Below are positions 1 to 30,889 of a stretch of DNA of 64,000 nucleotides, piece by piece. The notes under the pieces were generated by a model. It was not told where the DNA came from and made no database searches. It saw nothing but the letters and a program-made list of their open reading frames with translations. The first letter of the stretch is position 1. The number at the start of each line of letters is the position of its first letter. Position numbers and translations under genes: made by a program. Origin of the DNA: an uncultured Pseudomonadales bacterium (GTDB lineage Bacteria; Pseudomonadota; Gammaproteobacteria; Pseudomonadales; UBA7434); contig CALSNL010000004.1 in NCBI GenBank assembly GCA_943787705.1, positions 8,158-72,157 on the forward strand. The letters run 5' to 3'.

Positions 1-192
1 TTAGAGACCGAAATGGTAGTCTGTGATAGAAAAGGATTTTCGCATAGAAGATGCCCTTAATAACGATCGATTAAAAACACTTATAAAAAAATCGACATAA
101 GAACAGTATTAACGTGAATGACTTAATCTATTGATCAAATCATCATATGATATGTAATCAAACTTTATCAACGAATCATCGACAAAAATAAA

Positions 193-2109
193 ATGATATC
201 TTATAAAAAAATAATGGCTTCGATAGTTAATCAATGTATTGTTTACTCAGTAATATCATTGATATTTATCTCAACGGCCTTTGCCCTCGATGCAAAGATT
301 GAGAAGCCTAATATCCTATGGATTGTGAGTGAAGATAATAGTCCTTTAATCGGAGCCTATGGTGATAGCTTCGCTACAACGCCTAATATCGATAAGCTCG
401 CTAAGCAATCCATCGTTTACGATAATGCCTTTGCTAACTCTCCTGTTTGCGCTCCCACTCGTTTTTCAATTATTACGGGGATGCATGCGAATGCTATGGG
501 CACCGGTAATATGCGTAGCCGGAATAAAATTCCAGCATTCGTTAAAACCTATACTCACTATTTACGAGCGGCGAATTACCACGTTACCAATAATAGTAAA
601 ACCGATTACAACTTCGCTACTGCAGACATACCCGATGGTAAACTGCTTAAGCATAAAGAGTGGCAAGCGATTGATAGCCAGCTCTGGAATAAAGGCAGTT
701 ACGCAGACCGCCAAGAGGGTCAGCCTTTTTTTCATGTCTACAATATATCTGAATCTCATGAAAGCCGCTTGCATAGAAAGCTCAAAAAACGCCTGCACCG
801 CCCTGAAGATGTCACCCTACCGCCCTACCACCCTGATACTTTAGAAATACGCAGTGATTGGGCATTATATTATGATCGTATAACACAAATGGATAGCATC
901 GTCGGTAATAAGCTGACTGAATTAGAAGCGGCTGGAGAACTTGAAAATACCATAGTATTTTATTATTCCGATCATGGTGGTGCGCTCGCGAGAAGTAAAC
1001 GATTCTTGTATGACACGGGCACCAAAATCCCCTTTATGGTCCATGCACCAAAAAAATATCAACACTTATTGAATCATGAAATGAGCAGTCGAACAGATCA
1101 GCTTATTGATATTGTTGATTTAGCGCCTACATTACTTTATTTGGCCGGCATCAAAAAACCTGCTCATATGCATGGCGAAAATATTTTTAGCAGCGCTGAC
1201 AATAACCGTAAACAATATAACTATTTGTATCGTGGCCGTATGGATGCACGCATAGATTTAGTGCGCGCATTGCGTAATGAGAAATTCAAATATATTCGTA
1301 ACTATATGCCGCATCGTCCTAATGGACAGCATTTAAGTTATTTATGGAAAGCTGCATCCGTACGCTCATGGCAGCAAGCCTGCCAACAGAATCAATGCAA
1401 TGAAACCCAGCAACGCTTCTGGCAAGCGCGTCCTAGCGAAGAATTATATGATACGAGCGTTGACCCCTGGGAAGTGAACAATTTAGCGAATGACGGCACT
1501 TACAGCGCTGTGTTATCTGAAATGCGCAAGGCATTGCAAGCAAAAAATCGACAGTACAAAGATATAGGTTTTATACCCGAAGGAGAGCTCGCTAAACGGA
1601 CTAAAAACAAAACCGGCTATGAACTCGTTAGAGAAGATAACTTTCCTATCGATTTAATTATTGAAACAGCAGAAATTGCCAGTTTAGCGAAACCAAAAAA
1701 TCTACCTTTACTCACCCAGCGACTATCGCACCAAGAACCCATTGTTAGATACTGGGCAGCGATGGGATGCACTATTTTAAAAGAACAGGCTATGCCGGCA
1801 AAGCTTGAACTCTTACAACGACTTCGCGATGACTCGGCAGATGTGCAAATTGCCGCCGCAGAAGCGCTTGTCCATATAGGTAATGAGCAGCAAGCCCTAG
1901 CAATCCTGATGAAACAACTCACTCACCCCACAGCCATGGTGAGAATTCATGCGGCCAATGCACTCGACGCTATAGGCATCAAAGCTAAACCTGTAGCTAA
2001 AAAACTCAAAACGATAGTTACTGCAATGCAGGCGTTAAAAACGAAAGAACTATCACCTGAAGAGAAATATTTGCTTTCAGCATTATCACATACTGTTTCA
2101 AAACTATGA
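193..2109 (+). CDS. Secreted Cys-type sulfatase (arylsulfatase family) with a C-terminal HEAT-like repeat region
   Basis: 638-aa ORF with a hydrophobic N-terminal signal-like segment. Sulfatase signature SPVCAPTRFSIITG (C-x-P-x-R formylglycine motif) and YYSDHGG. The C-terminal ~150 aa carries repeated helical motifs (PIVRYWAAMGC, VQIAAAEALVHIG, AMVRIHAANALDAIG). Confidence 0.8.
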   Translation: MISYKKIMASIVNQCIVYSVISLIFISTAFALDAKIEKPNILWIVSEDNSPLIGAYGDSFATTPNIDKLAKQSIVYDNAFANSPVCAPTRFSIITGMHANAMGTGNMRSRNKIPAFVKTYTHYLRAANYHVTNNSKTDYNFATADIPDGKLLKHKEWQAIDSQLWNKGSYADRQEGQPFFHVYNISESHESRLHRKLKKRLHRPEDVTLPPYHPDTLEIRSDWALYYDRITQMDSIVGNKLTELEAAGELENTIVFYYSDHGGALARSKRFLYDTGTKIPFMVHAPKKYQHLLNHEMSSRTDQLIDIVDLAPTLLYLAGIKKPAHMHGENIFSSADNNRKQYNYLYRGRMDARIDLVRALRNEKFKYIRNYMPHRPNGQHLSYLWKAASVRSWQQACQQNQCNETQQRFWQARPSEELYDTSVDPWEVNNLANDGTYSAVLSEMRKALQAKNRQYKDIGFIPEGELAKRTKNKTGYELVREDNFPIDLIIETAEIASLAKPKNLPLLTQRLSHQEPIVRYWAAMGCTILKEQAMPAKLELLQRLRDDSADVQIAAAEALVHIGNEQQALAILMKQLTHPTAMVRIHAANALDAIGIKAKPVAKKLKTIVTAMQALKTKELSPEEKYLLSALSHTVSKL

Positions 2110-2345
2110 TTTTCATATATTTAACAACAAGTATGCCGCACTGATTACAATGAAATTATTCATATAAATCATAAGCTTATAAAAAAACGTTATGCCAATT
2201 ATGCGGCCAATTAGCTTACACGTTAATACTTGTTTATTGATTGTTCGGCTGATACGATTAATCTAATAATTATAAAACGTAAAACCGTTCTCCCCCGAAT
2301 GGCTTTATTTGTTACTAGAAAGTAAATCACACCCTGGAGAAAAAG

Positions 2346-3160
2346 ATGTATTCCATCTTTAAGCACTTGCGTACCTGCGCGTTTGTTTCATTATCTTGCT
2401 TATCGCAGCAAGCCTCAGCTATTTATATTGATCTTAATTTCAGCGGCACACTGTCTAATTCCCAAAAAGCGCTTTTCACTCAGGCTGAACAATTCTGGGA
2501 AACTACGCTTACCGGCTATCAACCTAGCGTCAATGCCAGCTCGCTAAGCAATATCGTTATTAACGCTGAAGGGACAGCAATCGATGGCGTCGGCGGCACA
2601 CTTGGCTCTGCTGGACCAACCTATATATGGACTACCGGCGGCTATACGCTCACCTCTGAAGGCGATATGCGAGTTCGATACTGCTGACCTCTCTAACTTA
2701 GAAAGCAACGGCTCACTCGAAAGCGTGATTCTGCATGAAATGGCCCATGTATTAGGCTTAGGCACACTTTGGCAACTGAATGGCGTGTATACAGCCGGCA
2801 GTGGTCAATACACGGGTGCCAATGCTCTAAGCCTATGGCAAACTGAATTTGGCCAAACCAATGCTACGTATATTCCCTATCGAATTGGGTGGCGGACCGG
2901 GCACTGCAGGTGGTCACTGGAATGAAGTTAACAATGGCGGCGCTTTAACGGGTATCACTGATGCAAATAATAATGATCTAACTTACGAATTAATGACTGG
3001 CTGGCTAAACTCACCCACATTCATTAGTAACATGACGATAGCGTCTTTTGCCGACATCGGTTATGAAGTCGTATATTCTGAAGTCCCTATTCCTGCAGCG
3101 GCTTATTTGTTTTTATCTGCCTTAACGGGATTGGGTTACATTAAACGTAAACAACACTAA
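2346..3160 (+). pseudogene. Leishmanolysin-like HExxH zinc metalloprotease with a PEP-CTERM-like C-terminal sorting tail, split over three frames
   Basis: Three overlapping ORFs (2346-2687, 2584-2925, 2849-3160) read as one protein. It has a signal peptide (..SCLSQQASA), IDGVGGTLGSAGP, VILHEMAHVLGLGTLW, GGGPGTAGGHWNE, and the tail VPIPAAAYLFLSALTGLGYIKRKQH. At least two frame changes are needed, near 2670-2690 and 2870-2900. Confidence 0.6.
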
Positions 3161-5410
3161 CGTATGGCATCAATAACAATACTTGGCGTAAGTATTTGCG
3201 GCAGCACTACTGCCGTTTTACCAGGTGCATAATAAACATATAACGGCACGCCGTTACGAGAAAAAGTAGCTAGATACTCGGTAATTACCGGATCGCTATT
3301 AGTCCAATCGCCTTTTAAATAGGTAATGGACTGCGCTGCAAAAGCGTTCTTCACTTTATTCGTTCCTAATGCAATTCGCTCATTGACCTTACAAGTAATA
3401 CACCAGTCGGCCGTCATATTAACAAACACCGCTTCGCCATTATCTAACGCTTGTTGTAAGCGCTCTGGCGTGTATTCCTGCGCGTCACTTTCTACCGTTG
3501 CAGTATCAGTTAAGACGATATCATTACGCTCTACACTCGCCGCATACAGTGCCAGTATAATTGCAGCCACTAAAATAAACGCAGCAACAGCACGACTCAT
3601 AAAAGCATCATCACGGAATTGAGTTTGTCGCCAAATCCAAAGTGCCAGCGCCACTAATACCAGCCCCACTAACATTAAGGCAACTGCATCACCGCCCGTC
3701 TGACGCGAGAACACCCAGAGCAACCAAATAACGGTGAGGTAAATAGGAAAGGCCAAAAACTCTTTTAACCGCACCATCCAATTTCCCGGCTTAGGCAAGG
3801 CGTTAGCTAAGAACGGTATAAAGGCGATAAGCAAAAACGGCAAGGCTAAACCTAAGCCCATAGCGGCAAAAATCAGTAACGCAACGACTGCCGATTGACC
3901 CAGCGCAAAGCCCATTGCCGTTCCCATAAACGGTGCCGTACAAGGTGTAGCAACCACAGTGGCTAATACCCCAGTAAAAAATGAACCGCGCCAATCACTG
4001 CTTGAACGTTCTTTATTGCCCAGCCCTGAACCTAAGTTTTGCAGTGATGAGCCTAATTCAATAAAGCCCGATAACGATAAACCTAAGACAAATAATAGAT
4101 ACACTAAAAACGCGATAAACCAAGGCGATTGAAGTTGAAATCCCCAGCCAATTTGTTCTCCCGCAAATCGCAGAGCAATCAGTAAACCTGCAATGAATAA
4201 GAAACTTAAAATAACACCGGCAGTATAAGCAATACCATGCCGTCTTCGCTCTGTTGAATTATGATTACCGCTTTCAACTAAACTCACAATTTTTAATGAC
4301 AGCACAGGAAAAACACAAGGCATGGCATTAAGTATTAACCCGCCTGCTACAGCTAATAAAAGCGCATATAAAATACTAATAGGCGCTGCTGAGGTGTCGA
4401 CTGAAGGTGAATCAGATGAGCTTGCTGCAGTAGTTTCTTTGCGTCATTCAATAAGCGAGTTATTAGTACTCGCAAGTACTGCTTTTTTGCGTGCAGTAAA
4501 TTCGATAGCCTGAGCCTGACCCCTCTTCTGCCGCTGCCGTTACTAATAAAACAGACAGTAACTCCGGCGCCTCTTCTAAGTAGTAATCTTTTTTGGCAGA
4601 TATATGCAGTTGATCGTTAATTATTTTAATAGTTGGCTTATCAAAATTATCAACAATACCGGCACTACCAATAAACACTTGCGGTAGGCGCTCAAACGCT
4701 GGCAACTCATTTAATGCAACCGCAATATCTACCTGCTCACCCACAGCATAAGCAGCGTTATTGGTATAAATTAAACGAGGGATTTTACTGCGGGCTTCTT
4801 CAAATAATGGATGGCTCGTGGTCTCTTGAATGTTATCCAGCTTTCGATCTCGCAAAGGTAAGACTACTGTCAGTTCAGCTTTTCCAGGAATACAGACATC
4901 TTTGCAAATTAACCATTTTGCCGTTGCTGATAATGCTATCTCACCCTGGCTATTAATAGCGCCAGAAGAAATAGAAGCTGGTACAGAGATAGAGACCGGC
5001 AACCAAGTTTCACCGTGATAACCAAAATTGACCGCTCCTTGATAATCAATCCGTTCAGGCACTGGCCACTCTAAATTCCCTGCCCTAAATTGCTCAGGCA
5101 ACTGCCAAATAACGCGTGTGGGTAAACCCGTATCGCCAGGATTTCTCCAATAAGTGTGCCAGCCTTCATCAGGCAATAATCTTAGTGCTAATTGCGCAGT
5201 CTCACCAGCAACAAGGTAGCCCTGCTCACTCACTAAGCCGACCTTTATATGTGCTGCTGCTTTCTGCTCACCAAACACCGGCGAGCTTGCCAATACCGGC
5301 TTTGAGGCTATGGAAAGCATCATGCAAAATACGACAAACGCAGCTATCAAGCTGCGCTGTGGCGATAATAAGACCTTAACGGTCAAAAGGGCTTGCAACA
5401 TAGTCGACAC
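3157..5410 (-). pseudogene. dsbD: DsbD/ScsB-type thiol:disulfide interchange protein, interrupted between the N-terminal domain and the membrane core
   Basis: ORF 4463-5410 gives the signal peptide and the long periplasmic DsbD N-terminal-type domain (WHTYWRNPGDTGLPT). ORF 3157-4323 gives the membrane core (..LILNAMPCVFPVLSLK) and the C-terminal thioredoxin domain (WCITCK). Joining them needs a frame change around 4470-4530 and read-through of an in-frame TGA at 4444-4446. Confidence 0.55.
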
Positions 5411-5879
5411 TCAAAAATGAAGGTAATGGTTCATGGTAAAGAGATTATCAAATACTAAGTTAATTCAGTACTTTGGGCTGTGAGTTTGATTCAATTTGGC
5501 ATAAATGACCAACTTTGATGGCTTTCTAATAAGCAAAAGCACCATTCAAGAAGCCAAAAATGGCACCAAAAGCAAAACGGTTACATATTAACCACTCTTA
5601 TATTTGAATGCGCACTTGATTTTACCCTACTACGCCCCAATATTTAGCATAGATAACGGTGAAGTATTTCTTACGATACACACCGCAAAACAGATCGTTA
5701 CCAACCACCACTTCAACGATCTTTTTCGGCAAAATGTTAGCGCAATTATCATTATTAGCGTTGCGTTTGCAGGGGTATTGAGTATGATATTACCGTATTA
5801 GCGCAGCTTGTAAATGAGCACGCAAAACCGTTTTATATTTTCACTAGATTGAATAGACCAACACTTAGGAGTATTCACC

Positions 5880-6548
5880 ATGCAGGATAAACTTTTTAGC
5901 ACACAGGCCGCCGGTTCGCGTTCTGTTTTAGAAACCAATAAGGTACTTCGCAATACCTATATGCTGCTTTCAATCACGTTAATGTTTAGCGCTATCGCTG
6001 CGGCATCAACCATGGCAATGGGCATTGGTCGCGGCACATCACTAATGATGTCATTAGGCGCCTTAGGTTTAATCTTCTTCGCCCTACCCCGCACACAAAA
6101 TTCAGCGTCAGGTATTTGGGTTGTTTTTGCCTTTACCGGCCTTATCGGTGGTTCACTAGGCCCAATGCTTAATCACTATATGGCTATGGCCAACGGTGGC
6201 TCATTAATTATGCAAGCCTTAGGCGGCACAGCATTAGTGTTCTTTGGCCTATCAGGCTACGTGCTTACCACTAAGAAAGACTTCTCATTTATGGGTGGCT
6301 TTTTAATGGTCGGCTTGCTGGTTGCGATTGTCGGAATGATTGCAAATATCTTTCTACAGATTCCAGCCATGTCACTGGCTATCTCGGCAGGTATCGTATT
6401 GGTGATGTCTGGCTTCATTTTGTTTGATACTAGCCGTATTATTAACGGCGGCGAAACTAACTATATTCGCGCTACTGTTTCATTGTATTTAAACATCGTT
6501 AATTTATTCACTTCTATATTGCACCTTTTGGGCGCTATGGATGATTAA
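5880..6548 (+). CDS. yccA: BAX inhibitor-1/YccA family inner-membrane protein (copy 1)
   Basis: 222-aa multi-pass membrane ORF. It is clearly similar to E. coli YccA as I remember it (KVLRNTY.., LGGTALVFF, GGETNYIRATVSLY). GGAG sits 9 nt upstream of the ATG. Confidence 0.85.
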   Translation: MQDKLFSTQAAGSRSVLETNKVLRNTYMLLSITLMFSAIAAASTMAMGIGRGTSLMMSLGALGLIFFALPRTQNSASGIWVVFAFTGLIGGSLGPMLNHYMAMANGGSLIMQALGGTALVFFGLSGYVLTTKKDFSFMGGFLMVGLLVAIVGMIANIFLQIPAMSLAISAGIVLVMSGFILFDTSRIINGGETNYIRATVSLYLNIVNLFTSILHLLGAMDD

Positions 6549-6589
6549 GCAATAATTAAATCAGTCCTTTTTATAGACTGATATTAGAA

Positions 6590-6616
6590 AGCCCTGCTCT
6601 TGCGGGGCTTTTTTTT
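6590..6616 (+). terminator. Rho-independent terminator after yccA (copy 1)
   Basis: AGCCCTGC-TCTT-GCGGGGCT stem-loop followed by T8. Confidence 0.8.
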
Positions 6617-6697
6617 GGCTAAAATACCTTGAGAAAATAATGCAATACGGATGCTTTAACGCATAATAGCCTGAAATCTAGAAAGTAATTGGAGCTT

Positions 6698-7690
6698 ATG
6701 AGTAATACTAACGAACATGCTTTCGCGCAATTTATTCGTACTATCGGCAAAGGGAAAACCGGCCGACGCTCACTGACGCTGCAAGAAGCGCAAACAGCGA
6801 TGCAAATGATTTTGGCTAATGACGTTGAGCCACTTCAACTTGGCGCGTTTTTAATGGTATTACGAGTAAAAGAAGAATCGGCCGAAGAAATTGCTGGCTT
6901 TGTTCTCGCCTGTAGAGAATATATTAATAAAGATAAACCGGTGATGATAAAGCCAGATTTAGACTGGTCTTCTTATGCTGGCAAAAAACGGCAGCCGCCG
7001 TGGTTTTTATTATCGGCCCTACTGCTCGCTCAATCCGGCTATCGCGTATTTATGCACGGTGCCAGTGGCCATACACCAAACCGCCTTTATAGCGAAGAAG
7101 TGCTTAAGCAGCTTGGTATTAGCACTGCCACTAATTGGCAGCAATGCGAGCAACAGCTTAACGCTCATAACTTTAGTTTTATGCCTATTAAAAGCCTCTG
7201 TAAGCCCCTGCATGACATTATTGAGCTGCGTCCATTATTGGGTTTGCGCTCACCCGTGCATACGCTGACAAGGTTGTTAAACCCGCTGGAGTCAGACACC
7301 ACCTTACAAAGTGTTTTCCACCCTTCATACACCGATACTCATCATCATGCTGCACAACTGCTTATGCAAAAAAATGCTGCAGTATTTAAAGGTGAAGGTG
7401 GCGAAGTGGAATATCGACCGCAGGCCGACATTACGATTAAAGGCTTATCTAACGGTGAGAGTGAGCTCTATACAATTCCGCGCCAAGCTGAAGCACCTGA
7501 CGAAACCGATGTTAGCAGTCAACTATTGTTAAATTTATGGCAGGAAACGAAGTGTGATAGCCATGGATTAAAAGCCGTATTAGGCACTGCCGCTATTGCG
7601 TTAAAAACCATGGGAGTAGAAAAAAATATATCGCAAGCCCAGCAATTGGCTCAGCAACTGTGGGACAAGCGAAAAGAATCGTTAGTTTAA
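6698..7690 (+). CDS. ybiB: TrpD2/YbiB-like glycosyltransferase family 3 (anthranilate phosphoribosyltransferase-like) protein (copy 1)
   Basis: ~330-aa ORF. The N-terminus FIRTIGKGKTGRRSLTLQEA..LGAFLMVLRVKEES resembles E. coli YbiB (from memory). ATG at 6698 follows GGAG; the ORF track starts at the upstream TTG at 6689. Confidence 0.65.
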   Translation: MSNTNEHAFAQFIRTIGKGKTGRRSLTLQEAQTAMQMILANDVEPLQLGAFLMVLRVKEESAEEIAGFVLACREYINKDKPVMIKPDLDWSSYAGKKRQPPWFLLSALLLAQSGYRVFMHGASGHTPNRLYSEEVLKQLGISTATNWQQCEQQLNAHNFSFMPIKSLCKPLHDIIELRPLLGLRSPVHTLTRLLNPLESDTTLQSVFHPSYTDTHHHAAQLLMQKNAAVFKGEGGEVEYRPQADITIKGLSNGESELYTIPRQAEAPDETDVSSQLLLNLWQETKCDSHGLKAVLGTAAIALKTMGVEKNISQAQQLAQQLWDKRKESLV

Positions 7691-8605
7691 TTAAGCGTCG
7701 TCATAACCATTGGGATTAGCTGACTGCCATCGCCAACCATCCGCTGTCATCTCTTCAATACCCAACTCGGCTTGCCAGTTCAGCTCAGCTTTTGCTAGTG
7801 AAGCATCGGCATAGCAAATAGCCGCATCACCAGGGCGTCGGTCCACCAGCTTGTAAGGAATCTCACAACTTGAAGCTTTTTCAAACGCTTTAACCATATC
7901 CAATACTGAATACCCAATACCGGTACCGAGGTTATATGGAACGATGCCAGGAGCACTTTTTAGTTTTTCAAGTGCACATAAATGGCCTTTGGCTAAATCC
8001 ACAACATGAATATAATCACGAACACCGGTGCCATCATGCGTTGGATAATCACTCCCGTAAACGGAGAGCGCTGCTAATTTTTTTACTGCGACTTGCGCAA
8101 CATAGGGCATTAAATTATTGGGAATATCTTTAGGATCTTCGCCTATCAAGCCGCTACTGTGTGCGCCAGCAGGATTAAAATAGCGCAATAAAATGGCATT
8201 CCAGCGCGAATCGGATGCGCCTAAATCACGCAGCATCTCTTCAATAAATAATTTACTTCGACCGTAGGGGTTAACTGCTGATAATGGAAAGCTCTCGGTA
8301 ATCGGCACACTCGCCGGCTCACCATAAACGGTTGCCGATGAGCTAAAAACTAAATTGTATAAATCGTGACGCTGCATGGTTTCAAGTAATACCTGAGTAC
8401 CATAAATATTATTATCATAATATTTGAGTGGCTGCGCTACCGATTCACCCACCGCTTTTAAACCCGCAAAATGAATAACTGCTGAAAAAGTATGTTCAGC
8501 AAATACCGCTTCCATTTTATCTCGATCACGAATATCGATAGGGTAAAGCGTAATGCTTTTTTGAGTGATCGACTCTACACGCTTAAGCGCCTCGGTATTG
8601 CTATT
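7691..8605 (-). pseudogene. galE: 5'-truncated duplicate of galE (lacks codons 1-35, including the GxxGxxG NAD-binding motif)
   Basis: Protein-identical to residues 36-339 of the full galE at 10675-11694. A TAA at 8606-8608 lies immediately upstream in frame. The first in-frame ATG is at 8515 (residue 66 of the full protein). Confidence 0.85.
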
Positions 8606-8863
8606 TTACCCTACTACGCCCCAATATTTAGCATAGATAACGGTGAAGTATTTCTTACGATACACACCGCAAAACAGATCGTTACCAACCACCACTTCAA
8701 CGATCTTTTTCGGCAAAATGTTAGCGCAATTATCATTATTAGCGTTGCGTTTGCAGGGGTATTGAGTATGATATTACCGTATTAGCGCAGCTTGTAAATG
8801 AGCACGCAAAACCGTTTTATATTTTCACTAGATTGAATAGACCAACACTTAGGAGTATTCACC

Positions 8864-9532
8864 ATGCAGGATAAACTTTTTAGCACACAGGCCGCCGGTT
8901 CGCGTTCTGTTTTAGAAACCAATAAGGTACTTCGCAATACCTATATGCTGCTTTCAATCACGTTAATGTTTAGCGCTATCGCTGCGGCATCAACCATGGC
9001 AATGGGCATTGGTCGCGGCACATCACTAATGATGTCATTAGGCGCCTTAGGTTTAATCTTCTTCGCCCTACCCCGCACACAAAATTCAGCGTCAGGTATT
9101 TGGGTTGTTTTTGCCTTTACCGGCCTTATCGGTGGTTCACTAGGCCCAATGCTTAATCACTATATGGCTATGGCCAACGGTGGCTCATTAATTATGCAAG
9201 CCTTAGGCGGCACAGCATTAGTGTTCTTTGGCCTATCAGGCTACGTGCTTACCACTAAGAAAGACTTCTCATTTATGGGTGGCTTTTTAATGGTCGGCTT
9301 GCTGGTTGCGATTGTCGGAATGATTGCAAATATCTTTCTACAGATTCCAGCCATGTCACTGGCTATCTCGGCAGGTATCGTATTGGTGATGTCTGGCTTC
9401 ATTTTGTTTGATACTAGCCGTATTATTAACGGCGGCGAAACTAACTATATTCGCGCTACTGTTTCATTGTATTTAAACATCGTTAATTTATTCACTTCTA
9501 TATTGCACCTTTTGGGCGCTATGGATGATTAA
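8864..9532 (+). CDS. yccA: BAX inhibitor-1/YccA family inner-membrane protein (copy 2)
   Basis: Nucleotide-identical to 5880-6548, and it keeps the same 258 bp of upstream sequence. Confidence 0.85.
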   Translation: MQDKLFSTQAAGSRSVLETNKVLRNTYMLLSITLMFSAIAAASTMAMGIGRGTSLMMSLGALGLIFFALPRTQNSASGIWVVFAFTGLIGGSLGPMLNHYMAMANGGSLIMQALGGTALVFFGLSGYVLTTKKDFSFMGGFLMVGLLVAIVGMIANIFLQIPAMSLAISAGIVLVMSGFILFDTSRIINGGETNYIRATVSLYLNIVNLFTSILHLLGAMDD

Positions 9533-9573
9533 GCAATAATTAAATCAGTCCTTTTTATAGACTGATATTAGAA

Positions 9574-9600
9574 AGCCCTGCTCTTGCGGGGCTTTTTTTT
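9574..9600 (+). terminator. Rho-independent terminator after yccA (copy 2)
   Basis: Identical to 6590-6616. Confidence 0.8.
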
Positions 9601-9681
9601 GGCTAAAATACCTTGAGAAAATAATGCAATACGGATGCTTTAACGCATAATAGCCTGAAATCTAGAAAGTAATTGGAGCTT

Positions 9682-10674
9682 ATGAGTAACACTAACGAAC
9701 ATGCTTTCGCGCAATTTATTCGTACTATCGGCAAAGGGAAAACCGGCCGACGCTCACTGACGCTGCAAGAAGCGCAAACAGCGATGCAAATGATTTTGGC
9801 TAATGACGTTGAGCCACTTCAACTTGGCGCGTTTTTAATGGTATTACGAGTAAAAGAAGAATCGGCCGAAGAAATTGCTGGCTTTGTTCTCGCCTGTAGA
9901 GAATATATTAATAAAGATAAACCGGTGATGATAAAGCCAGATTTAGACTGGTCTTCTTATGCTGGCAAAAAACGGCAGCCGCCGTGGTTTTTATTATCGG
10001 CCCTACTGCTCGCTCAATCCGGCTATCGCGTATTTATGCACGGTGCCAGTGGCCATACACCAAACCGCCTTTATAGCGAAGAAGTGCTTAAGCAGCTTGG
10101 TATTAGCACTGCCACTAATTGGCAGCAATGCGAGCAACAGCTTAACGCTCATAACTTTAGTTTTATGCCTATTAAAAGCCTCTGTAAGCCCCTGCATGAC
10201 ATTATTGAGCTGCGTCCATTATTGGGTTTGCGCTCACCCGTGCATACGCTGACAAGGTTGTTAAACCCGCTGGAGTCAGACACCACCTTACAAAGTGTTT
10301 TCCACCCTTCATACACCGATACTCATCATCATGCTGCACAACTGCTTATGCAAAAAAATGCTGCAGTATTTAAAGGTGAAGGTGGCGAAGTGGAATATCG
10401 ACCGCAGGCCGACATTACGATTAAAGGCTTATCTAACGGTGAGAGTGAGCTCTATACAATTCCGCGCCAAGCTGAAGCACCTGACGAAACCGATGTTAGC
10501 AGTCAACTATTGTTAAATTTATGGCAGGAAACGAAGTGTGATAGCCATGGATTAAAAGCCGTATTAGGCACTGCCGCTATTGCGTTAAAAACCATGGGAG
10601 TAGAAAAAAATATATCGCAAGCCCAGCAATTGGCTCAGCAACTGTGGGACAAGCGAAAAGAATCGTTAGTTTAA
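9682..10674 (+). CDS. ybiB: TrpD2/YbiB-like protein (copy 2)
   Basis: Identical to copy 1 except for a synonymous AAT/AAC change (6706 vs 9690). Confidence 0.65.
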   Translation: MSNTNEHAFAQFIRTIGKGKTGRRSLTLQEAQTAMQMILANDVEPLQLGAFLMVLRVKEESAEEIAGFVLACREYINKDKPVMIKPDLDWSSYAGKKRQPPWFLLSALLLAQSGYRVFMHGASGHTPNRLYSEEVLKQLGISTATNWQQCEQQLNAHNFSFMPIKSLCKPLHDIIELRPLLGLRSPVHTLTRLLNPLESDTTLQSVFHPSYTDTHHHAAQLLMQKNAAVFKGEGGEVEYRPQADITIKGLSNGESELYTIPRQAEAPDETDVSSQLLLNLWQETKCDSHGLKAVLGTAAIALKTMGVEKNISQAQQLAQQLWDKRKESLV

Positions 10675-11694
10675 TTAAGCGTCGTCATAACCATTGGGAT
10701 TAGCTGACTGCCATCGCCAACCATCCGCTGTCATCTCTTCAATACCCAACTCGGCTTGCCAGTTCAGCTCAGCTTTTGCTAGTGAAGCATCGGCATAGCA
10801 AATAGCCGCATCACCAGGGCGTCGGTCCACCAGCTTGTAAGGAATCTCACAACTTGAAGCTTTTTCAAACGCTTTAACCATATCCAATACTGAATACCCA
10901 ATACCGGTACCGAGGTTATATGGAACGATGCCAGGAGCACTTTTTAGTTTTTCAAGTGCACACAAATGGCCTTTGGCTAAATCCACAACATGAATATAAT
11001 CACGAACACCGGTGCCGTCATGGGTTGGATAATCACTCCCGTAAACGGAGAGCGCTGCTAATTTTTTTACTGCGACTTGCGCAACATAGGGCATTAAATT
11101 ATTGGGAATATCTTTAGGATCTTCGCCTATCAAGCCGCTACTGTGTGCGCCAGCAGGATTAAAATAGCGCAATAAAATCGCATTCCAGCGCGAATCGGAT
11201 GCGCCTAAATCACGCAGCATCTCTTCAATAAATAATTTACTTCGACCGTAGGGGTTAACTGCTGATAATGGAAAGCTCTCGGTAATCGGCACACTCGCCG
11301 GCTCACCATAAACGGTTGCCGATGAGCTAAAAACTAAATTGTATAAATCGTGACGCTGCATGGTTTCAAGTAATACCTGAGTACCATAAATATTATTATC
11401 ATAATATTTGAGTGGCTGCGCTACCGATTCACCCACCGCTTTTAAACCCGCAAAATGAATAACTGCTGAAAAAGTATGTTCAGCAAATACCGCTTCCATT
11501 TTATCTCGATCACGAATATCGATAGGGTAAAGCGTAATGCTTTTTTGAGTGATCGACTCTACACGCTTAAGCGCCTCGGTATTGCTATTGGATAAATTAT
11601 CAACAACGACAACATCGTAACCAGCTTCTAATAACTCAATGCATGTGTGGCTACCAATATAGCCCGCACCACCTGTCACTAAAATCTTATTCAT
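10675..11694 (-). CDS. galE: UDP-glucose 4-epimerase
   Basis: 339 aa: [16 protein letters not shown] (Rossmann motif), [18 protein letters not shown] (catalytic YxxxK). Its stop codon abuts the ybiB stop (TAA|TTA at 10672-10677). Confidence 0.9.
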
Positions 11695-12132
11695 AAATCC
11701 CTAACCCTAATGTCTTTTTATTCATACATACCTATCTACTTAGCATAGATCATATAGCACTGAACGGTCGTAAAACATCCTGAAAGACAATCTTTTACCG
11801 TTCTTTTACCTCTGCGGCAACCTTAGCTCCTCTCACAGCCCTGACCAACGCTTACAGACTATGACTGATGATTGTTGAGTGTTTTACTTACTCATTCAAT
11901 GGCCCTTCAAATAGCTCTTTAGATAGCCCTTTAGCAAGCCTCTTTAATGAACTCTTTAAAACACAGGCAGACCCCCTATTAACTGTTAGCGCTTAGAATC
12001 GATCTTGAATTAATCCTGCAATAGCATCGCAGATAATTTATCATACCGCCTTTAGGATCTAATGATCATCAAATAAGCATAATACAGCAGCTGATGCTAG
12101 CAATTTCATCACGGTAATACGAAACCAAACAC

Positions 12133-13308
12133 ATGACTCAAGAAAAACTGTCGATACCTTCAATCAATTATGCCCCCGAGCAATACGAACAACTGCTGGA
12201 TGAAAAAGCCCAGCGAATCACACAATTATTAGCGCCATTTAACCCGCCGATCTCCGGCGACTATTTTCATCGCCGAAAAAGCACTTTCGGATGCGCGCTG
12301 AATTTCGTATTTGGCATGACAGACAAGGCGAAGATAATCATTGTTTTTATGTGATGTTTGAGCCCGATGCGCCCAGCTGTGCCAGTGAGAGTTGATCACT
12401 ACCCTATTGGTAGCTTATCAATCACCGCGCTCATGCCAGAATTACTTGCAACCATTAATCAATCCAGCACGCTTAAGCATAAACTCTTTCAAGTGGAGTT
12501 TTTAACCACCACAGGCGGCGAAGTACTCATTAGCTTAATCTATCATCGACAGTTAGATGAACTTTGGGAGGTTGAAGCGCGGCAATTAGAACAGCAATTC
12601 AATATTTTTGTGATAGGCCGTGCGAGAAAACAGCGTCTGGTTATTTCTCGTGACTATGTGGTTGAGACACTGCCTATCGTGACTGAAACACAGCCTGAAA
12701 AATCACAAGTGTTTAGCTATCACCAACAAGAAAACAGTTTTACTCAGCCTAATGCGGCTATTAATTGCAAAATGATTGAATGGGTTTTAGCGCAGTTCTC
12801 AGATAATAATAAGCAAGATTTGTTAGAGCTTTACTGTGGCAATGGTAACTTTACGATTCCGCTATCTCGACAATTTAATAAGGTGTTAGCAACAGAAATA
12901 TCTAAATCTAGCATACGACTCGCTAAGCAAAACTGTTTAATTAATGATGTCGAAAATATTGAATTTATTCGCCTAAGCAGTGATGAAACCGCATCGGCCT
13001 TAAAGCATGAGCGCGAGTTTAGACGACTTAAACATATTGATATCGATAGCTATAATTTTTCGACGGTATTGGTTGATCCGCCTCGTGCAGGACTCGATGA
13101 AAATACGCTTAAATTAGTGGCAGGGTTCGATACGATTATTTATATTTCTTGTAACCCGAATACGCTGGCAGAAAATCTGAGCACACTCAGCAATACGCAT
13201 AGCGTTAAAGAGTTTGCACTATTCGATCAGTTCCCTTACACCAACCACTGTGAATGCGGCATGATATTACAACGCCTTCCACTCAATGAGGATAACCCGA
13301 ATGTCTAA
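12133..13308 (+). CDS. trmA: tRNA (uracil54-C5)-methyltransferase TrmA, with two apparent frame breaks near the 5' end
   Basis: The N-terminus [26 protein letters not shown] and the alternative-frame [19 protein letters not shown] match E. coli TrmA (from memory). The remaining 316 aa has the SAM-methyltransferase core ([24 protein letters not shown]). Frame changes lie near 12250 and 12360-12390. Confidence 0.8.
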
Positions 13309-13582
13309 TGAACAATTAACAGATTCCGAAATCAATGAACAAGCAACACAGCTTGCTCACTGGGAACTCCAAGGCGAAATGCTTTATCGGCAATTTTTCT
13401 TTAAAGACTTTATTGCCGCATTTGAATTTATGACCAAGGTGGCAGCATTAGCTGAGCAAGCGAATCATCATCCTAACTGGAGTAATGTTTACAATAAGGT
13501 CGATATTGCCTTAACGACTCATGAATTCAATAGTGTTAGCCAAAGAGATTTTGATTTGGCAAAAAAAATTGATCAACTATAA
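13301..13582 (+). CDS. phhB: Pterin-4-alpha-carbinolamine dehydratase
   Basis: ~93 aa with the characteristic ..ANHHPNWSNVYNKVDIALTTHE.. motif. The ATG at 13301 overlaps the trmA stop. Confidence 0.85.
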   Translation: MSNEQLTDSEINEQATQLAHWELQGEMLYRQFFFKDFIAAFEFMTKVAALAEQANHHPNWSNVYNKVDIALTTHEFNSVSQRDFDLAKKIDQL

Positions 13583-13614
13583 ATCCATCTATCGTCAATC
13601 TATTAATAGTCGGC

Positions 13615-14466
13615 TTATACAATAAGCGCCTGCATCATCTGCTCTACCACATCACGCTTATCATCCAGCAACTGAATTTCATATTTATAAAGATTAAGCT
13701 CACTGAATACAGCCTGATCAACAACGGCATCTAAAAACCGAACAGGCTCACCCGTGGCTAATACGATGTCAGCTAATAGACGTGCTGCATTAACGGCTGC
13801 CACTTCTAACTGCATATCTTTAGCTAAATCATATTCATCGATATAACTAATCGTGGCCATAATCGACTCAGGTAAATGCCAAGAGCGAGCGAGCTTAAGG
13901 CCAGTTGTCTTTTGATGTTTTTCGATTAACCGCAGTAAATCATCGCGCGTAGGCAATAATTCTTGGTCGCCTAATAACTCGTTAATAGCATGCAACACAA
14001 CAGGCTTGCCGATTTGATGAAGCAAGGCATTCAGAAAAACAACCTCGGAATTAAGATGACAAAGGCGAGCAATCTCTCGCCCCCATAAAGCACATAGCAA
14101 TGAATGCTGCCATAAATAAGTAGTTATCTCGCGTGTTGACGCATTCGATTTAAAAGCGCTTTGACCAACAGTCATGGTCAAAACCATTTGCGCTATATTT
14201 TTCATACCCAATTTAGCAATGGCTTGCTGCAAGGTTTGTGTTTTACCGTAGCTGCTAAACGCCGCCGAATTAGCGACCTTCATAATATAACTGGTCAGCG
14301 ATAAGTCATTCTCGATTAGCCCTGCTAAGCCATACGCATCTGAATCTTTATCTTCCGTCAGCGCTAGCACCTGGACACCCACAGCAGGAAGCACCGGCAA
14401 CTCAATAGCACCGCTTGCAATATGCGTTTTCAATTGTTGTTCAAGGATAACCATCATTAACCTCAC
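13615..14466 (-). CDS. HDOD-domain signalling protein
   Basis: 283 aa. LPVLPAVGVQVLAL.., MKVANSAAFS.., QQAIAKLGMKNI.., ALLHQIGK are typical of HDOD domains. Confidence 0.75.
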   Translation of the reverse strand: MRLMMVILEQQLKTHIASGAIELPVLPAVGVQVLALTEDKDSDAYGLAGLIENDLSLTSYIMKVANSAAFSSYGKTQTLQQAIAKLGMKNIAQMVLTMTVGQSAFKSNASTREITTYLWQHSLLCALWGREIARLCHLNSEVVFLNALLHQIGKPVVLHAINELLGDQELLPTRDDLLRLIEKHQKTTGLKLARSWHLPESIMATISYIDEYDLAKDMQLEVAAVNAARLLADIVLATGEPVRFLDAVVDQAVFSELNLYKYEIQLLDDKRDVVEQMMQALIV

Positions 14467-14667
14467 AGGATAAATTATGAGATTAATATTGTAGTTGATA
14501 AAAGCATGCCTAATAGCTTGCTAAGGCGCTACAAAAGTAAAATTAATTGACTAGGCGCTTATTTTATCAATTAAAAAAACTAACAAGGGAATGAAAAGCA
14601 AAGAAAACAGAATAGATGGCGAAGAAATAGATACGTTTTAGCGGTCTAGATATGACCTAGATAGATA

Positions 14668-15912
14668 TTATACGCCGCCTATACAGGTAGCACATTCAGC
14701 TGCAATCAATGTGCCGACATGGCTGCGGCGATAAGGTCTAGGTTGCTGATCATGAGCAGACATAGCGCGATACATTTTATTTTCTAGCGCTATCACTTTT
14801 CTCTCATGCTGGTAAGGATACATGGCACCGCTCATACCACCACTTCGAATAAACTCACTTGTCTCTGTGAGCGTCAGCTTAGCATGGAGCAGTTCATGCA
14901 ATAATGCATCAACAGGGCTCGCTGTACAGTGTCCCGCGTCTACCTCACAAGCTTCATGCGATTTCAAAATCGCAGCTGCTCGCGTATCAAAATAAATTCT
15001 TACCGAGTTCACGTCAAAGTTGGTTCCTCTGACATCAGAGCGAAACTCTCCCGCCCTATGATGCAAAGTCCAAGGCTGCTTGCGAACACTCATTAATAAT
15101 TCATAAGCTTGAGGACGTGCAGCAATATACTGAGCCATCTCATCAATATCGTCACCAAGATAACCAGGATCTCGTTTATTTTTAATCCACTTTTTCCCTA
15201 ACAATTTGAGTACGGCTTGATATTTTTCAGGAGAAAAATCGTCGGCAACTGCCATATCGGAATGCTCATGAGCATCACTATGGGCTTCGTGTAAATCTAA
15301 CGCTAAGCCATTGCTCTTTTCATTAAAATAATCAGTTGTCGGTGAGAATAAGCCTAACGGTCGAACAATTGTTGAGGCATTAACATGACTGGCTGCAAAG
15401 AGTGTTTGTCCACTAACCGCAGCGCTATTTAAGCTGAAGTCTGACGCCATAACCGAGCTGTTATGCAATAAAAACGAGCTTGCCGCTAAACGTATAGAGG
15501 CAAGTACAACACGCTGTCGTCGATCATGCTCAACCTTATGAGCAACTTTACGGCGATCTTCTAATAAGTACCAACCCGACTGGTTCGCAACCCGTTCTAG
15601 ATGAGCAAAGGCTTCAGGGTTATTGAGACTAAAGGCAGCATGATAAATCATCGTCTGCTGGCCTTCGACAAGACAAAGCTTTACCGCATTCTCTCTACGA
15701 TAAAACATCATATCCGAAGTAAAGAAAGCGATATTCATATCCATCAAGGCATCAAACTGAGGTGAACGCAGTAAACGTCGCGCCGCATCTGTTAATGAGC
15801 AACTTACTCTGCAGGTATTCACCTGAGCATTCAGCCATGCAGACATGATGGCAATAAATTGACTTATCAAACCTGTGGCTTTAGCTATGTAAGAGACTGA
15901 TTTAGATCGCAT
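14668..15912 (-). CDS. Hypothetical protein with a C-terminal HExxH (HELLH) zinc-metallopeptidase-like motif
   Basis: Intact 414-aa ORF with no recognisable signal peptide. ..PVDALLHELLHAKL.. lies ~70 aa from the C-terminus. The family cannot be assigned by eye. Confidence 0.5.
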   Translation of the reverse strand: MRSKSVSYIAKATGLISQFIAIMSAWLNAQVNTCRVSCSLTDAARRLLRSPQFDALMDMNIAFFTSDMMFYRRENAVKLCLVEGQQTMIYHAAFSLNNPEAFAHLERVANQSGWYLLEDRRKVAHKVEHDRRQRVVLASIRLAASSFLLHNSSVMASDFSLNSAAVSGQTLFAASHVNASTIVRPLGLFSPTTDYFNEKSNGLALDLHEAHSDAHEHSDMAVADDFSPEKYQAVLKLLGKKWIKNKRDPGYLGDDIDEMAQYIAARPQAYELLMSVRKQPWTLHHRAGEFRSDVRGTNFDVNSVRIYFDTRAAAILKSHEACEVDAGHCTASPVDALLHELLHAKLTLTETSEFIRSGGMSGAMYPYQHERKVIALENKMYRAMSAHDQQPRPYRRSHVGTLIAAECATCIGGV

Positions 15913-16598: not shown

Positions 16599-16844
16599 GA
16601 TTCCTGGCAATAGGTACATTGACGCCATGATGCAGACGTGGACCTATGATTGGTTTGACTGGATCAACTGGATCTACCGGCCGACCGGATCTACCGGATG
16701 CTACCGGATCACCGGTCTACCTGATCACCGGTTCCGGATCCACCGGATCGCCTGGATCACCTGGATCGCCTGTACCACCATCGCCTGATCACTTCTAGTG
16801 ATCAGGCTAGAATCAGCTGCTGTAGTTGACGGATCTTGACTCAT

Positions 16845-16932
16845 CCGCCGGATTCATATCTCGACCTTCCGAATCCCACTGGCGATCTACCGTTTCATCG
16901 CTGGATACTAATCCTGGCATTCTACTGTTATT
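16845..16932. repeat. Diverged direct repeat, copy B (partner at 16501-16598)
   Basis: See copy A. On the minus strand both copies encode ..GLVSSDET....WDSEGRDMNPA.., and copy A carries a 1-nt insertion. Confidence 0.8.
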
Positions 16933-16960
16933 TCCGCCAGTTCCGCCTTGGTGCCATAGG

Positions 16961-17008
16961 CACCTGTATCAACGGTTCCGCCTGTGCCACCTGTATCAAC
17001 GGTTCCGC
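16961..17008. repeat. 27-bp-period tandem repeat
   Basis: CACCTGTATCAACGGTTCCGC occurs at 16961-16981 and again at 16988-17008. On the minus strand it encodes GTVDTGGTG-GTVDTG. Confidence 0.85.
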
Positions 17009-18915
17009 TCTGTACATCCGGTATCTGGATCTAGTGCCGGAGCCCAAGTTGTAGTATTTTTGCCACCACCTGAGCCGCCTGGATCAATAATAACCGGTGG
17101 CATACTAGCCTCATTCACCACTGAAATGCGTGTCCAGCTATTAATAAAGTCACTTGAACCGTCTTCAGTAGTACCTACTGGGTTAAACACACCATTAATA
17201 ATGTCAACGTCTGCGTTGCCATCAATTCTATTAGTAACGACACCGCCGACCATATTAAAAACATCACGGCCACCAAGACCTTTAACAATAGCAACTGTAC
17301 CCGCAATATTAAACGTATCATCGCCAGCACCACCTATTAATGTGCCTATAGAAGCGCCATCAAGTATGTCTAAACTATTCTGTATTTGTGATGTTGCTGC
17401 TAAATACTCAATATTCGTAAAGCTTACCGCCGCCGTATTTTCCCAGCCATTACCTGAGCCTATACCCTCATAACTTGCAGTACCTTCATTAACGCCGGTC
17501 ACCTGGTAGTTAGCTAATCCGAATAAACGGTTAACTTCACCAGCACCTATAATAGATAGGCTAGACATACTGGTACTTAGGTTTTCATAAAACTCCAAGC
17601 GACCTTCTGAATCGGTAGTGTCCTCACCAATTGTCATAGAGACACTACCTGTGCCCGCATCAATCTGGTTAGCTAATACTATTCTGCCGGCATTTATTTC
17701 AATATCGCCGTTCGTAGCTGATGTATCCAAGTTACCCGTAGAATTGATCTTACCTCCGGTACCAATCAATCGAATGACACCGGGCGTTGAAATATCAATA
17801 CCTGTAGCGCGAATAACGCCTTTGTTATTAATCGCAAAGCTTTTAGGGTCAGAAACAATAGCGCGAATATTGATATTATTTGCACTGACTGTCGCATCCG
17901 CAGCAATATCAACAACACTGTCACCGCGGCTTGTTTGCAACGCCTCAGAGATATCAAACTGCATTAAATTATTATTATCAAAGGTAACAATGACTTCATT
18001 ACCTGCGATTAAATTCAAATCGCCAGCGGTTATTTCAATGTCACCATCAACATTAATGTCACCGGATAACAAAGCAATTTGAGCATCGGTTAAATTAGAA
18101 GTTAGGCCCTGCACGTCAATACTGGCGCCGGCGCCGTTGGTGGTAAAACGAAAATCGCCATTTTCAAAATCAGCAGTATCAATAGCGAGAGTACTTGCCA
18201 CTAAACTGGCTAAATCAACTTGCGCACCCGAACCAAAAACAATGCCATTTTGATTTACTAAAAAGACCTGAACGTTACCGTTAAGTACGCCATTAATATT
18301 ACTGGCATTACCACTCGTGTCGTTGACTAATACTGACCAGCTAGCAGCATCGCCACTATGGTTAAACGAGAGTGTTTCAGGAGCATCAACATTCACCCCT
18401 GCTCCAGAGAAATCAACAACGCGATTATCTTGGCTCACGGTTAAAGTGCCTTGACTACCATTAATGTTGTAGTTTGAATCGCCATTAACTGAATTAAAAT
18501 CAGCTGTCTGTGGAAGCGCAAATCGTATTTTGCATAATCACTGCTGAGGTGAGCATGGCAATAGTGCGCGAAAGAACCGGTTTTCTGAAGGTTACGGAAA
18601 GCTTACTCATATCATACCTACCTTATTTGGGCTATATATGGCACTGTATCTATCTGGAGCAAGACTGAGCGAAAAAAATAGAACACGCAAAGCCTAATGA
18701 ATGGGGTCAATCACTACAAAAATTTAACCAACTGCTTTAGTTTTATTATTAAAAGCTATTTAACTAGTGGGTAGCGAGACTAGATAAAAACGTTTTATTT
18801 TCAATGACTTATAAAAACAACTATTATTGGTTAAATTATAACCAACTGTGAGACTTACCAACAACCTGAAAACGATGTTTTTATCCTCTTCTTATAAGGC
18901 CCAAGAAACCAGTGC

Positions 18916-20674
18916 TTATAAATTCAGACCAACGCTCAACCAATATTGAGTACCCTCGCCATTAGCTGCCTCTGAGCCATCAAAGGGCTTAGCCGCAGAA
19001 AATCGAGCAAATCCACCAATATTCGGAAAAGTCAGCTCAGTCTCAACACCCCAACCAGCAATATCGAGTGAGTCTGTTGCTTCGCCATTGGCATCCTTCA
19101 ACTTACCCCAGCCATAATCAGCAAATACTGACAGCGATAAAATCTCACTCCAACTGTATTCGCCATAGGCAATGCCATTAGAAAATGCACCACCATTAAT
19201 AACCCAAGACAAACTAGTGAATACCGCAGTATCTCTAATGTATTCAGCAACGGGATAAGCCCTTACTGTATAGGGCCCACCTAAGCTCATGCGCTCTAGT
19301 GTAGATAATGCGTCGTCGGAATATTGGCCATTAAAGTGAAATAATAATGAGTTATTACGCACAACTGATTGCAAACGACTATAGCTTGCACTGACTTTAC
19401 TAAATTGGCCTGGCAGCGCTTGCTCACCATTAATGACGCCTAAACTTTCGCCATTACCTTGGCCATCCATTGAACCTAAAAAGTCATTAAAGCCATGCGA
19501 GAAGGTTAACGAACCACGGTGCACACCTCTAAATCGTGTATCTACCGAATCGGCTATAACTGAAGCTTCAAGTACAGTTAAACGATCGACCCCTTGCGCT
19601 ATATTGAATGATGTGAAATCGACATTGGAACGCTTAACGGCCAAACCAAGGCGCGTAGCTAAGTTAACATTTCGCTGACGTATCCATTGTGAGTTAATAA
19701 ATATATCGCCAATTTCTGTCTTGCCCTCTATTCCCAAAGCAAGGACGGCACTATCTTCGACGTTATAACTTGTCTTACTAAAGCCAAGCCCAAAAGTATG
19801 CACTAAATCGGGATGCGTTATTTGATAGGTGACTCTAGCATTGCGTAAATCACCCGGACTGAATGTTTTAACTGCGTATCTACTGACAGTTGATCGATAT
19901 GGCCAGTAATATTATTCACTTTAATGGCAAGCAATAGTCGCGCCTCACCGGTTGATTCAACACCATAATTATCGGCTTGAATAAAATAACTAATCGGGTC
20001 TTCATCAACCGTTTTAACCGTTAACGCTGTTTCACCCAAATCGTTGCCCGGCTTAAATACAGCGGTAGCAGTAAAACCAGGCATATCACTTAAGCGAAGA
20101 AGTTTACTCTCAACAAAATCAAGCTGGACCGCACTCACCGATAACGTTCTTGAAAGGTATGCTGGATAACACTGTCGCTGTATAAGACATTAGCATCACT
20201 GTTAACACCGCCAAACTTGCCGACAAATACGTGAATAGCTACGGCACCGTTCTCAATTTCTTGGGCAGGTAAAATCGCCTTTGCCAGCATTAAGCCTGAC
20301 TGCCGAAGGTTTTCTGTTACCAGAAAAGTGAGGTCATCAAGCTCAGTTAAATTAAAGTTATTATCGGAATCTAAAAGATAATCATTAACGAGATTGTTAA
20401 TGTTATTGACCTTTGTCACTAGCGATAAGTTGTGGCTCATCATAAGTCACAACCAATTTTTGCACGCTAATCACTGGGCCGCTGTCAGCATCTGTAGGTG
20501 GCGCAGCTACAGGAGGAACCGTTACGATATTTCATCAACAATAGCAGGAAGCATAGGCACTTCTCGCTCGGGCTCTAATGCACCTGGAGAATATGGTTTG
20601 AGCAACAGCAGAGGTTTGTAAAGCACACAACCATGAGTCCTGTTGCGCTGCAAATAATCCTTTTTTTTAAGCAT
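18916..20674 (-). pseudogene. TpsB (ShlB/FhaC-type) outer-membrane transporter, fragmented
   Basis: Fragments 20135-20443 (POTRA-like), 19818-20138 (LRLSDMPGF..TALTVKTVDEDP..YFIQADNYG) and 18916-19803 (beta-barrel ending ..YWLSVGLNL) are collinear. The N-terminal signal region starts at ATG 20674 and crosses a T8/A8 run at 20661-20668. I count at least five frame changes. Confidence 0.65.

Positions 20675-29384: not shown

Positions 29385-30889
<1,505 letters not shown>

Follow-up and report, generated by a model that had tools for sequence, protein, structure and literature searches.

The window analysed here is a stretch of 64,000 nt from an uncultured Pseudomonadales bacterium (assembly GCA_943787705.1, contig CALSNL010000004.1, positions 8,158 to 72,157 of the forward strand), in which a unit of 2984 bp with yccA, a ybiB-like gene and most of galE stands twice in tandem. 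Judged from the sequences compared here, this tandem repeat is probably a false duplication made during long-read metagenome assembly; it is most probably not a real genomic feature. The repeat is long, direct and private to one assembly, sibling assemblies carry unrelated private duplications, and its two copies carry alleles of different subpopulations. An assembly artefact, which the preliminary description of this locus listed last among its explanations, is the one that the data favour.

In the proposed mechanism, real genomes of this marine Cellvibrionales population would have one copy of dsbD-yccA-ybiB-like-galE-trmA, and the assembler would have left overlapping stretches of two closely related subpopulations unmerged and laid them end to end. 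This placement would have produced the junction of galE codon 36 with the yccA leader, and polishing with the mixed read set would then have preserved a small number of standing polymorphisms as differences between the copies.

The repeat and its junction

Self-comparison of the window with an offset of exactly 2984 bp shows that 5619-8605 recurs head to tail as 8603-11589, the match being 2987 bp long with five mismatches and no indels (99.83 % identity). The structure is therefore a direct repeat with one novel junction (GCT-ATT joined to TTACCC) and no long flanking homology. The trinucleotide ATT is all that the unit boundaries (5619-5621 and 11587-11589) have in common, the flanks being otherwise unrelated. 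Given the base composition, the probability of an overlap of at least 3 bp is 0.054, and the 3-bp microhomology of the junction is compatible with chance. The offset comparison thus confirms the unit length, the junction and the overlap that had been described before, as well as the two full copies of yccA and of the ybiB-like gene and the 5′-truncated galE, which lacks the GxxGxxG motif and is closed by a TAA. The longest ORF in this galE remnant (7691-8515, 274 aa) starts at M66.

Searches for repeats and mobile elements gave negative results. There are no inverted repeats of at least 30 nt in 4000-13500 of the window, and no direct repeats were found besides the 2984-bp unit; none of the genes called at the homologous loci has a transposase or integrase domain. 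The first 20 kb of the window match no Rfam family, so no structured RNA or riboswitch was found in the duplicated leader.

The copies had been called near-perfect, which is right as to their identity, but the term conceals five differences (6706, 7979, 8033, 8039, and 8195 in copy-1 coordinates), all of them synonymous and at third codon positions. The haplotypes at 7979, 8033, 8039, and 8195 are T-A-C-G in copy 1 and C-G-G-C in copy 2, with T-G-G-A in the common population and T-A-C-A in the lineage of contig L009. The A at 8033 and the C at 8039 in copy 1 belong to the L009 lineage, copy 2 has the common G at both sites, and at 6706 T and C segregate in the population; three of the five differences (6706, 8033, and 8039) are therefore alleles found in other contigs. 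The C of copy 2 at 7979 is private and 8195 is triallelic, copy 1 having G and copy 2 having C where A is found elsewhere. Because four of the differences lie within 217 bp and two of them 'revert' to common alleles, these four are standing variants and not point mutations that followed a duplication. The pattern of five synonymous differences likewise fits standing variation, not fresh mutation in a dead gene fragment. A very recent event, one of the earlier suggestions, does not fit with five differences in 3 kb, three of which segregate in the population and four of which lie within 217 bp.

A switch of strain exactly at the junction, with the left flank and copy 1 on one side and copy 2 and the right flank on the other, was not found. 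Nor was a strain-variant boundary found exactly at the left breakpoint, 5619, among close relatives.

The locus in other assemblies

In the public metagenome collection, 135 blocks have contigs that encode an identical YccA protein, and the window matches many ENA contigs at 97-99.9 % identity without being identical to any. The locus is single copy in nine of the ten contigs of 17-21 kb with identical YccA; the tenth, L005, is duplicated too, but with a different junction. The 40-mer across the window's junction is present in none of these ten. All five JGI short-read contigs at 93-99.6 % identity read through the locus in single copy, and a search of the JGI metagenome contigs (241 M records) gave no exact match to a 26-mer across the junction. 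At the protein level, there is no record of the 97-aa ORF across the junction, and the 274-aa truncated GalE is on record only in one contig of 0.2-1 Mb, taken to be the window's own, and in one scaffold cut by an N gap. Across the long contigs, the JGI contigs and the protein look-ups there is thus no independent support for the junction of the window. The same kind of exact-match look-up found no match for guaB and only short contigs for the esterase.

A comparison with related genomes had been suggested in the preliminary description. In the closest GTDB representatives (L022 and L023, uncultured Cellvibrionales/Pseudomonadales), whose YbiB-like proteins have 92 % and 85 % amino-acid identity, the gene order dsbD-yccA-ybiB-like-galE-trmA-pterin-4a-HDOD is the same as in the window, the locus is single copy, and the junction was not found.

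The sibling assemblies, which are ENA contigs with Flye-style names (contig_N or scaffold_N, ERZ10646xxx), contain tandem duplications of their own. In L005 (ERZ10646685 scaffold_19158), 9376-15545 is a duplication with a period of 3084 bp, the unit of which is equivalent to window 5255-8340, with an overlap of 2 bp; it covers almost the same genes as that of the window, and the junctions differ. A second duplication in L005 (17381-18655) is of 637 bp with a 1-bp overlap, and L004 (ERZ10646672 contig_8899) has one of 581 bp with no overlap at 5584-6743. The largest, of approximately 10 kb, is in ERZ10646675 contig_10149 (L046 and L045 merged, 7835-27843), where it runs from truA to purF and ends inside a Cys/Met-metabolism gene. 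Each sibling duplication is seen in one assembly only, the same region being single copy in the others. The junction overlaps of the five duplications, that of the window included (3, 2, 1, 0, and 0 bp), are as expected by chance.

Between the copies in contig_10149 there are 10 substitutions and 14 indels. Other samples have both alleles at five of the SNP sites; copy 2 has the haplotype of L051 at all five, and copy 1 resembles other samples.

No duplications were found at ten loci around fabV, nor in approximately 180 kb of short-read contigs, although such assemblies cannot hold kilobase-scale tandem repeats. An even rate of duplication across the genome is not supported, there being none at the ten fabV loci and the events being clustered in or next to variable regions.

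Artefact or genuine duplication

Comparison of PacBio HiFi reads with the assemblies made from them has identified false duplications, which are long direct repeats without any supporting read, together with concatenated variants specific to subpopulations and indels without read support; the problem was greatest with metaFlye and metaMDBG and, among samples, in those from the surface ocean (Trigodet et al., bioRxiv 10.1101/2025.04.22.649783). The repeat in the window resembles this class of error in being a long direct repeat within one contig that is absent from other reconstructions of the population, in lying in a strain-variable region in a surface-ocean community, with apparent ORF-breaking indels in the consensus, and in having differing instances in sibling assemblies. 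The class is defined by read clipping and drops in coverage, whereas the window is known from contigs, and we infer its assembler, its platform and the exact mechanism of mis-joining. North Sea spring-bloom metagenomes have been sequenced with PacBio HiFi and assembled with Flye 2.8 --meta (PMC10108472, PMC10182627), and the ERZ10646xxx assemblies and the window may belong to these.

A comparable situation exists in diploid genomes. There, two haplotypes of one locus can reportedly be placed in tandem, as heterotype false duplications, a phenomenon said to have been described by Ko et al. in Genome Biology in 2022. As in those cases, slightly diverged haplotypes of one locus would stand in the window as adjacent copies, with a spurious gain of genes. 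The 'haplotypes' of the window, however, would be those of co-occurring bacterial strains, and there is no scaffold gap between the copies.

The preliminary description took the repeat for a biological event, an illegitimate or microhomology-mediated duplication, which is probably wrong. The main rival to the artefact is a genuine strain-private tandem duplication, formed between codon 36 of galE and the dsbD-yccA spacer through RecA-independent illegitimate recombination or replication slippage; on the evidence compared here it is unlikely. Such a duplication could be neutral or transient, with one copy later patched through homologous recombination with other strains, or with the alleles sorted in polishing. 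Kilobase-scale tandem repeats collapse quickly in recombination-proficient cells, and despite this the two copies have five differences, three of which are pre-existing population alleles; the copies of a genuine duplication would be expected to be identical or to have new random mutations only. In addition, there are four other private duplications in approximately 0.4-0.5 Mb of sibling long-read contigs, five with that of the window, which, if all were real, would amount to tens per genome, each private to one sample. The absence of the junction from all of the other data searched also argues against a genuine duplication.

Several observations nevertheless count in favour of a real duplication and against an artefact. 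Firstly, the lineage-private alleles 8306 C and 8477 A are common to both window copies, and therefore both must come from one lineage or from two very close sub-strains, as they would in a real duplication. Secondly, RecA-independent duplication would likewise give a clean head-to-tail structure in which ATT is the 3-bp overlap and no mobile element is involved. Thirdly, two independent duplications, those of the window and of L005, cover nearly the same yccA-ybiB-like segment, which could reflect selection. The strain in the window is also distinct from every contig sampled, having 61 private alleles in 11.6-16.6 kb, so that a junction missing from those contigs may still be genuine in this strain. 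Short-read assemblies cannot represent kilobase-scale tandem duplications, and the single-copy state of the locus in them is therefore weak evidence. The argument from copy haplotypes is not decisive, since polishing of a genuine duplication with reads from mixed strains could also sort population alleles onto the copies. Furthermore, the attribution to Flye and HiFi reads rests on contig naming and indirect context, and the junction itself is known as assembled sequence. Lastly, a break 3 bp from the right boundary of the repeat in the short-read scaffold L011, described below, could mean that a junction exists in that sample.

An end-to-end join of two very different strains was considered separately and rejected, because the two copies agree in their mosaic and each has 8306 C and 8477 A as private alleles; two close sub-strains may have been joined.

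RecA-independent tandem duplications with short junctions, and gene amplification from them, are reportedly known from the work of the Roth and Andersson laboratories on Salmonella and on heteroresistance. The repeat in the window is like these in being head-to-tail, with little or no microhomology and no mobile element, and in including whole genes with their promoters. It differs from them in that its copies are not identical, as those of genuine recent duplications are; the junctions of the latter are recoverable from independent reads or isolates, and they do not come with many unrelated private duplications in sister assemblies. That this bloom-associated marine Cellvibrionales population repeatedly and independently makes short-junction tandem duplications of yccA-ybiB-like and other segments, strain-private and possibly adaptive, is a doubtful proposal. 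Were the duplications real, long reads would be revealing a wild bacterial population with a heavy standing load of duplications that are private to strains and may be adaptive, a prospect to which we give only a small chance.

Adaptive amplification is a special case of genuine duplication, in which the dosage of the YccA-family protein, a modulator of FtsH and membrane stress, or of the YbiB-like protein would have been selected in algal blooms; it is highly improbable. It would account for two junctions enclosing nearly the same segment (window 5619-8605 and, in L005, the equivalent of window 5255-8340), and for the upstream regions of yccA and the ybiB-like gene being kept in every copy in both. 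However, the copy number is never greater than two, and nine of the ten contemporaneous contigs are single copy. The other duplications (581 bp, 637 bp, and 10 kb) are in unrelated segments and cut through genes, which argues for a generic process and against selection at this locus, and the locus is in a region of high diversity, where assembler errors are expected to cluster. Dosage selection, which had been put forward previously, therefore finds no support, with the junction in no other assembly and unrelated private duplications in the sibling long-read assemblies.

Duplication by a mobile element or by long repeats (insertion sequence, REP element, rrn, or integrase) has practically no likelihood and is rejected: the absence of both had already been claimed and stands, with no inverted repeats, no transposase, no Rfam match, and flanks that share only ATT.

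If the repeat is an artefact of assembly, the additional yccA and ybiB-like genes and the 'truncated galE' are not to be counted as gene gains or pseudogenes, and a check of the window and similar contigs for false duplications and for indels in the consensus needs to precede any claim about gene dosage or pseudogenisation. The value of the repeat is then as a quality flag for the contig of the window and its relatives. If instead the junction is real, the repeat is a natural example of a kilobase-scale tandem duplication that wild marine bacteria have maintained, these genes having then been duplicated twice independently, and it would be of moderate interest for the study of gene amplification in nature.

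Variable regions, consensus quality, and features of the window

The first 20 kb of the window are 97-99.4 % identical to the sibling contigs, and 31-64 kb are 99.6-99.9 % identical. To the right of the repeat (11.6-16.6 kb), the window has private alleles at 61 of 105 variable sites, nearly all of which precede 12475; no private alleles occur in the left flank (1-5618). The divergent segment is contiguous from the middle of galE (8033 in unit coordinates) to the 5′ part of trmA (12474), and it has the look of a stretch imported by recombination or of an old allele at a hot spot. L011 (KRUG19-1_SAMN03169779 scaffold_15040), a scaffold assembled independently from short reads, has an N gap exactly over window 11587-12474, with one contig end 3 bp from the right boundary of the duplication and the other at the right edge of the divergent segment. 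This break is read as a sign that a population allele diverges there, making a node in the assembly graph. The break is at window 11586 in sample SAMN03169779, and the k-mer CGGTATTGCTATTTTACCCTACTACG would bear on it.

The 10-kb duplication of contig_10149 starts at the variable fimV-truA spacer (59095-59097), where all of the sibling alignments to the window break. Duplication boundaries sit near strain-variable spots. The fimV-truA spacer is a variable insertion hot spot, containing a transposase fragment (PF00872) in L047 and a 143-aa ORF in L044.

The consensus of the window contains broken genes, and the genes that are broken differ from assembly to assembly. On the minus strand, guaB (IMP dehydrogenase, 29579-30853) encodes 424 aa, compared with 488 aa in the sibling contigs, and relative to the short-read contig L038 this truncation is caused by two 1-bp insertions 51 nt apart. 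It probably reflects an error in the consensus, not pseudogenisation. Also on the minus strand, dsbD (3157-5410) is split into ORFs of 388 and 315 aa, but is intact (748 aa) in L006 and L009; its linker, especially 4358-4534, has many small indels between assemblies. On the plus strand, trmA (12133-13308) is split within a highly divergent allele by two insertions, of 2 bp near 12257 and of 1 bp near 12378, and in other assemblies it is either split elsewhere (301 and 100 aa) or intact (390 aa).

The coordinates of the repeat and its genes are given in the table. In the duplicated segment, the YbiB-like protein scores 174.2 bits against the YbiB model, which is under the cutoff of 185, and its gene is called as 330 aa in other assemblies.

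Coordinates of the tandem repeat, its genes, and adjoining features in the window.
Feature	Position	Strand	Remarks
Copy 1 of the 2984-bp unit	5619-8605		dsbD-yccA spacer from 261 bp upstream of yccA, yccA, ybiB-like gene, galE codons 36-339
Copy 2 of the unit	8603-11589		Runs on into the intact 5′ end of galE
Novel junction (GCT-ATT, then TTACCC)	8603-8608		ATT is the 3-bp overlap; TTA at 8606-8608 is TAA on the minus strand and closes the galE remnant
Bax1-I/YccA-family membrane protein, copy 1, 222 aa	5880-6548	+	NF007765 230.6 bits, under the curated cutoff of 353; Pfam PF01027 recorded on the identical product
Bax1-I/YccA-family protein, copy 2	8864-9532	+	Protein sequence same as copy 1
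Terminator-like hairpin (6596-6608) and T-run 3′ of yccA	6596-6616	+	Consensus scan only; recurs at ~9580-9600 in copy 2
YbiB-like gene (TrpD2 / PRK09071 'glycosyl transferase family'), copy 1	6689-7690	+	NF006564 403.8 bits, over the cutoff of 257
YbiB-like gene, copy 2	9673-10674	+	Protein same as copy 1; one synonymous difference at 9690
galE remnant, codons 36-339	7691-8605	-	First codon N36; TAA immediately upstream
217-bp patch with four of the five between-copy differences	7979-8195		Within the galE part; copy-2 equivalent 10963-11179
Intact galE, UDP-glucose 4-epimerase, 339 aa	10675-11694	-	TIGR01179 448.5 bits, over the cutoff of 262
Strain-variable segment adjoining the right boundary	11587-12474		Private alleles from 8033 (unit coordinates) to 12474; the L011 gap covers the same stretch

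Between galE and trmA, the spacer (11700-12050) is hypervariable. A motif of approximately 13 nt like ATTCAAACATAT varies in copy number around 11720, and a private stretch of approximately 140 bp in the window (11845-11985) is without counterpart in any sibling contig.

A Crp-family regulator (~19100-19760 in L013, L014, and L017-L020) is split into 150 and 68 aa in six of ten assemblies, and the other four, among them a short-read contig, have it intact (216 aa); the split is due either to a frameshift polymorphism that the six share or to a systematic error in the consensus. Between assemblies, window 16600-20000 is only 83-93 % identical. This two-partner-secretion/OmpA region (TPS, ShlB; ~17100-20669 in L001-L010) contains many short ORFs in most assemblies, and appears to be a hypervariable island.

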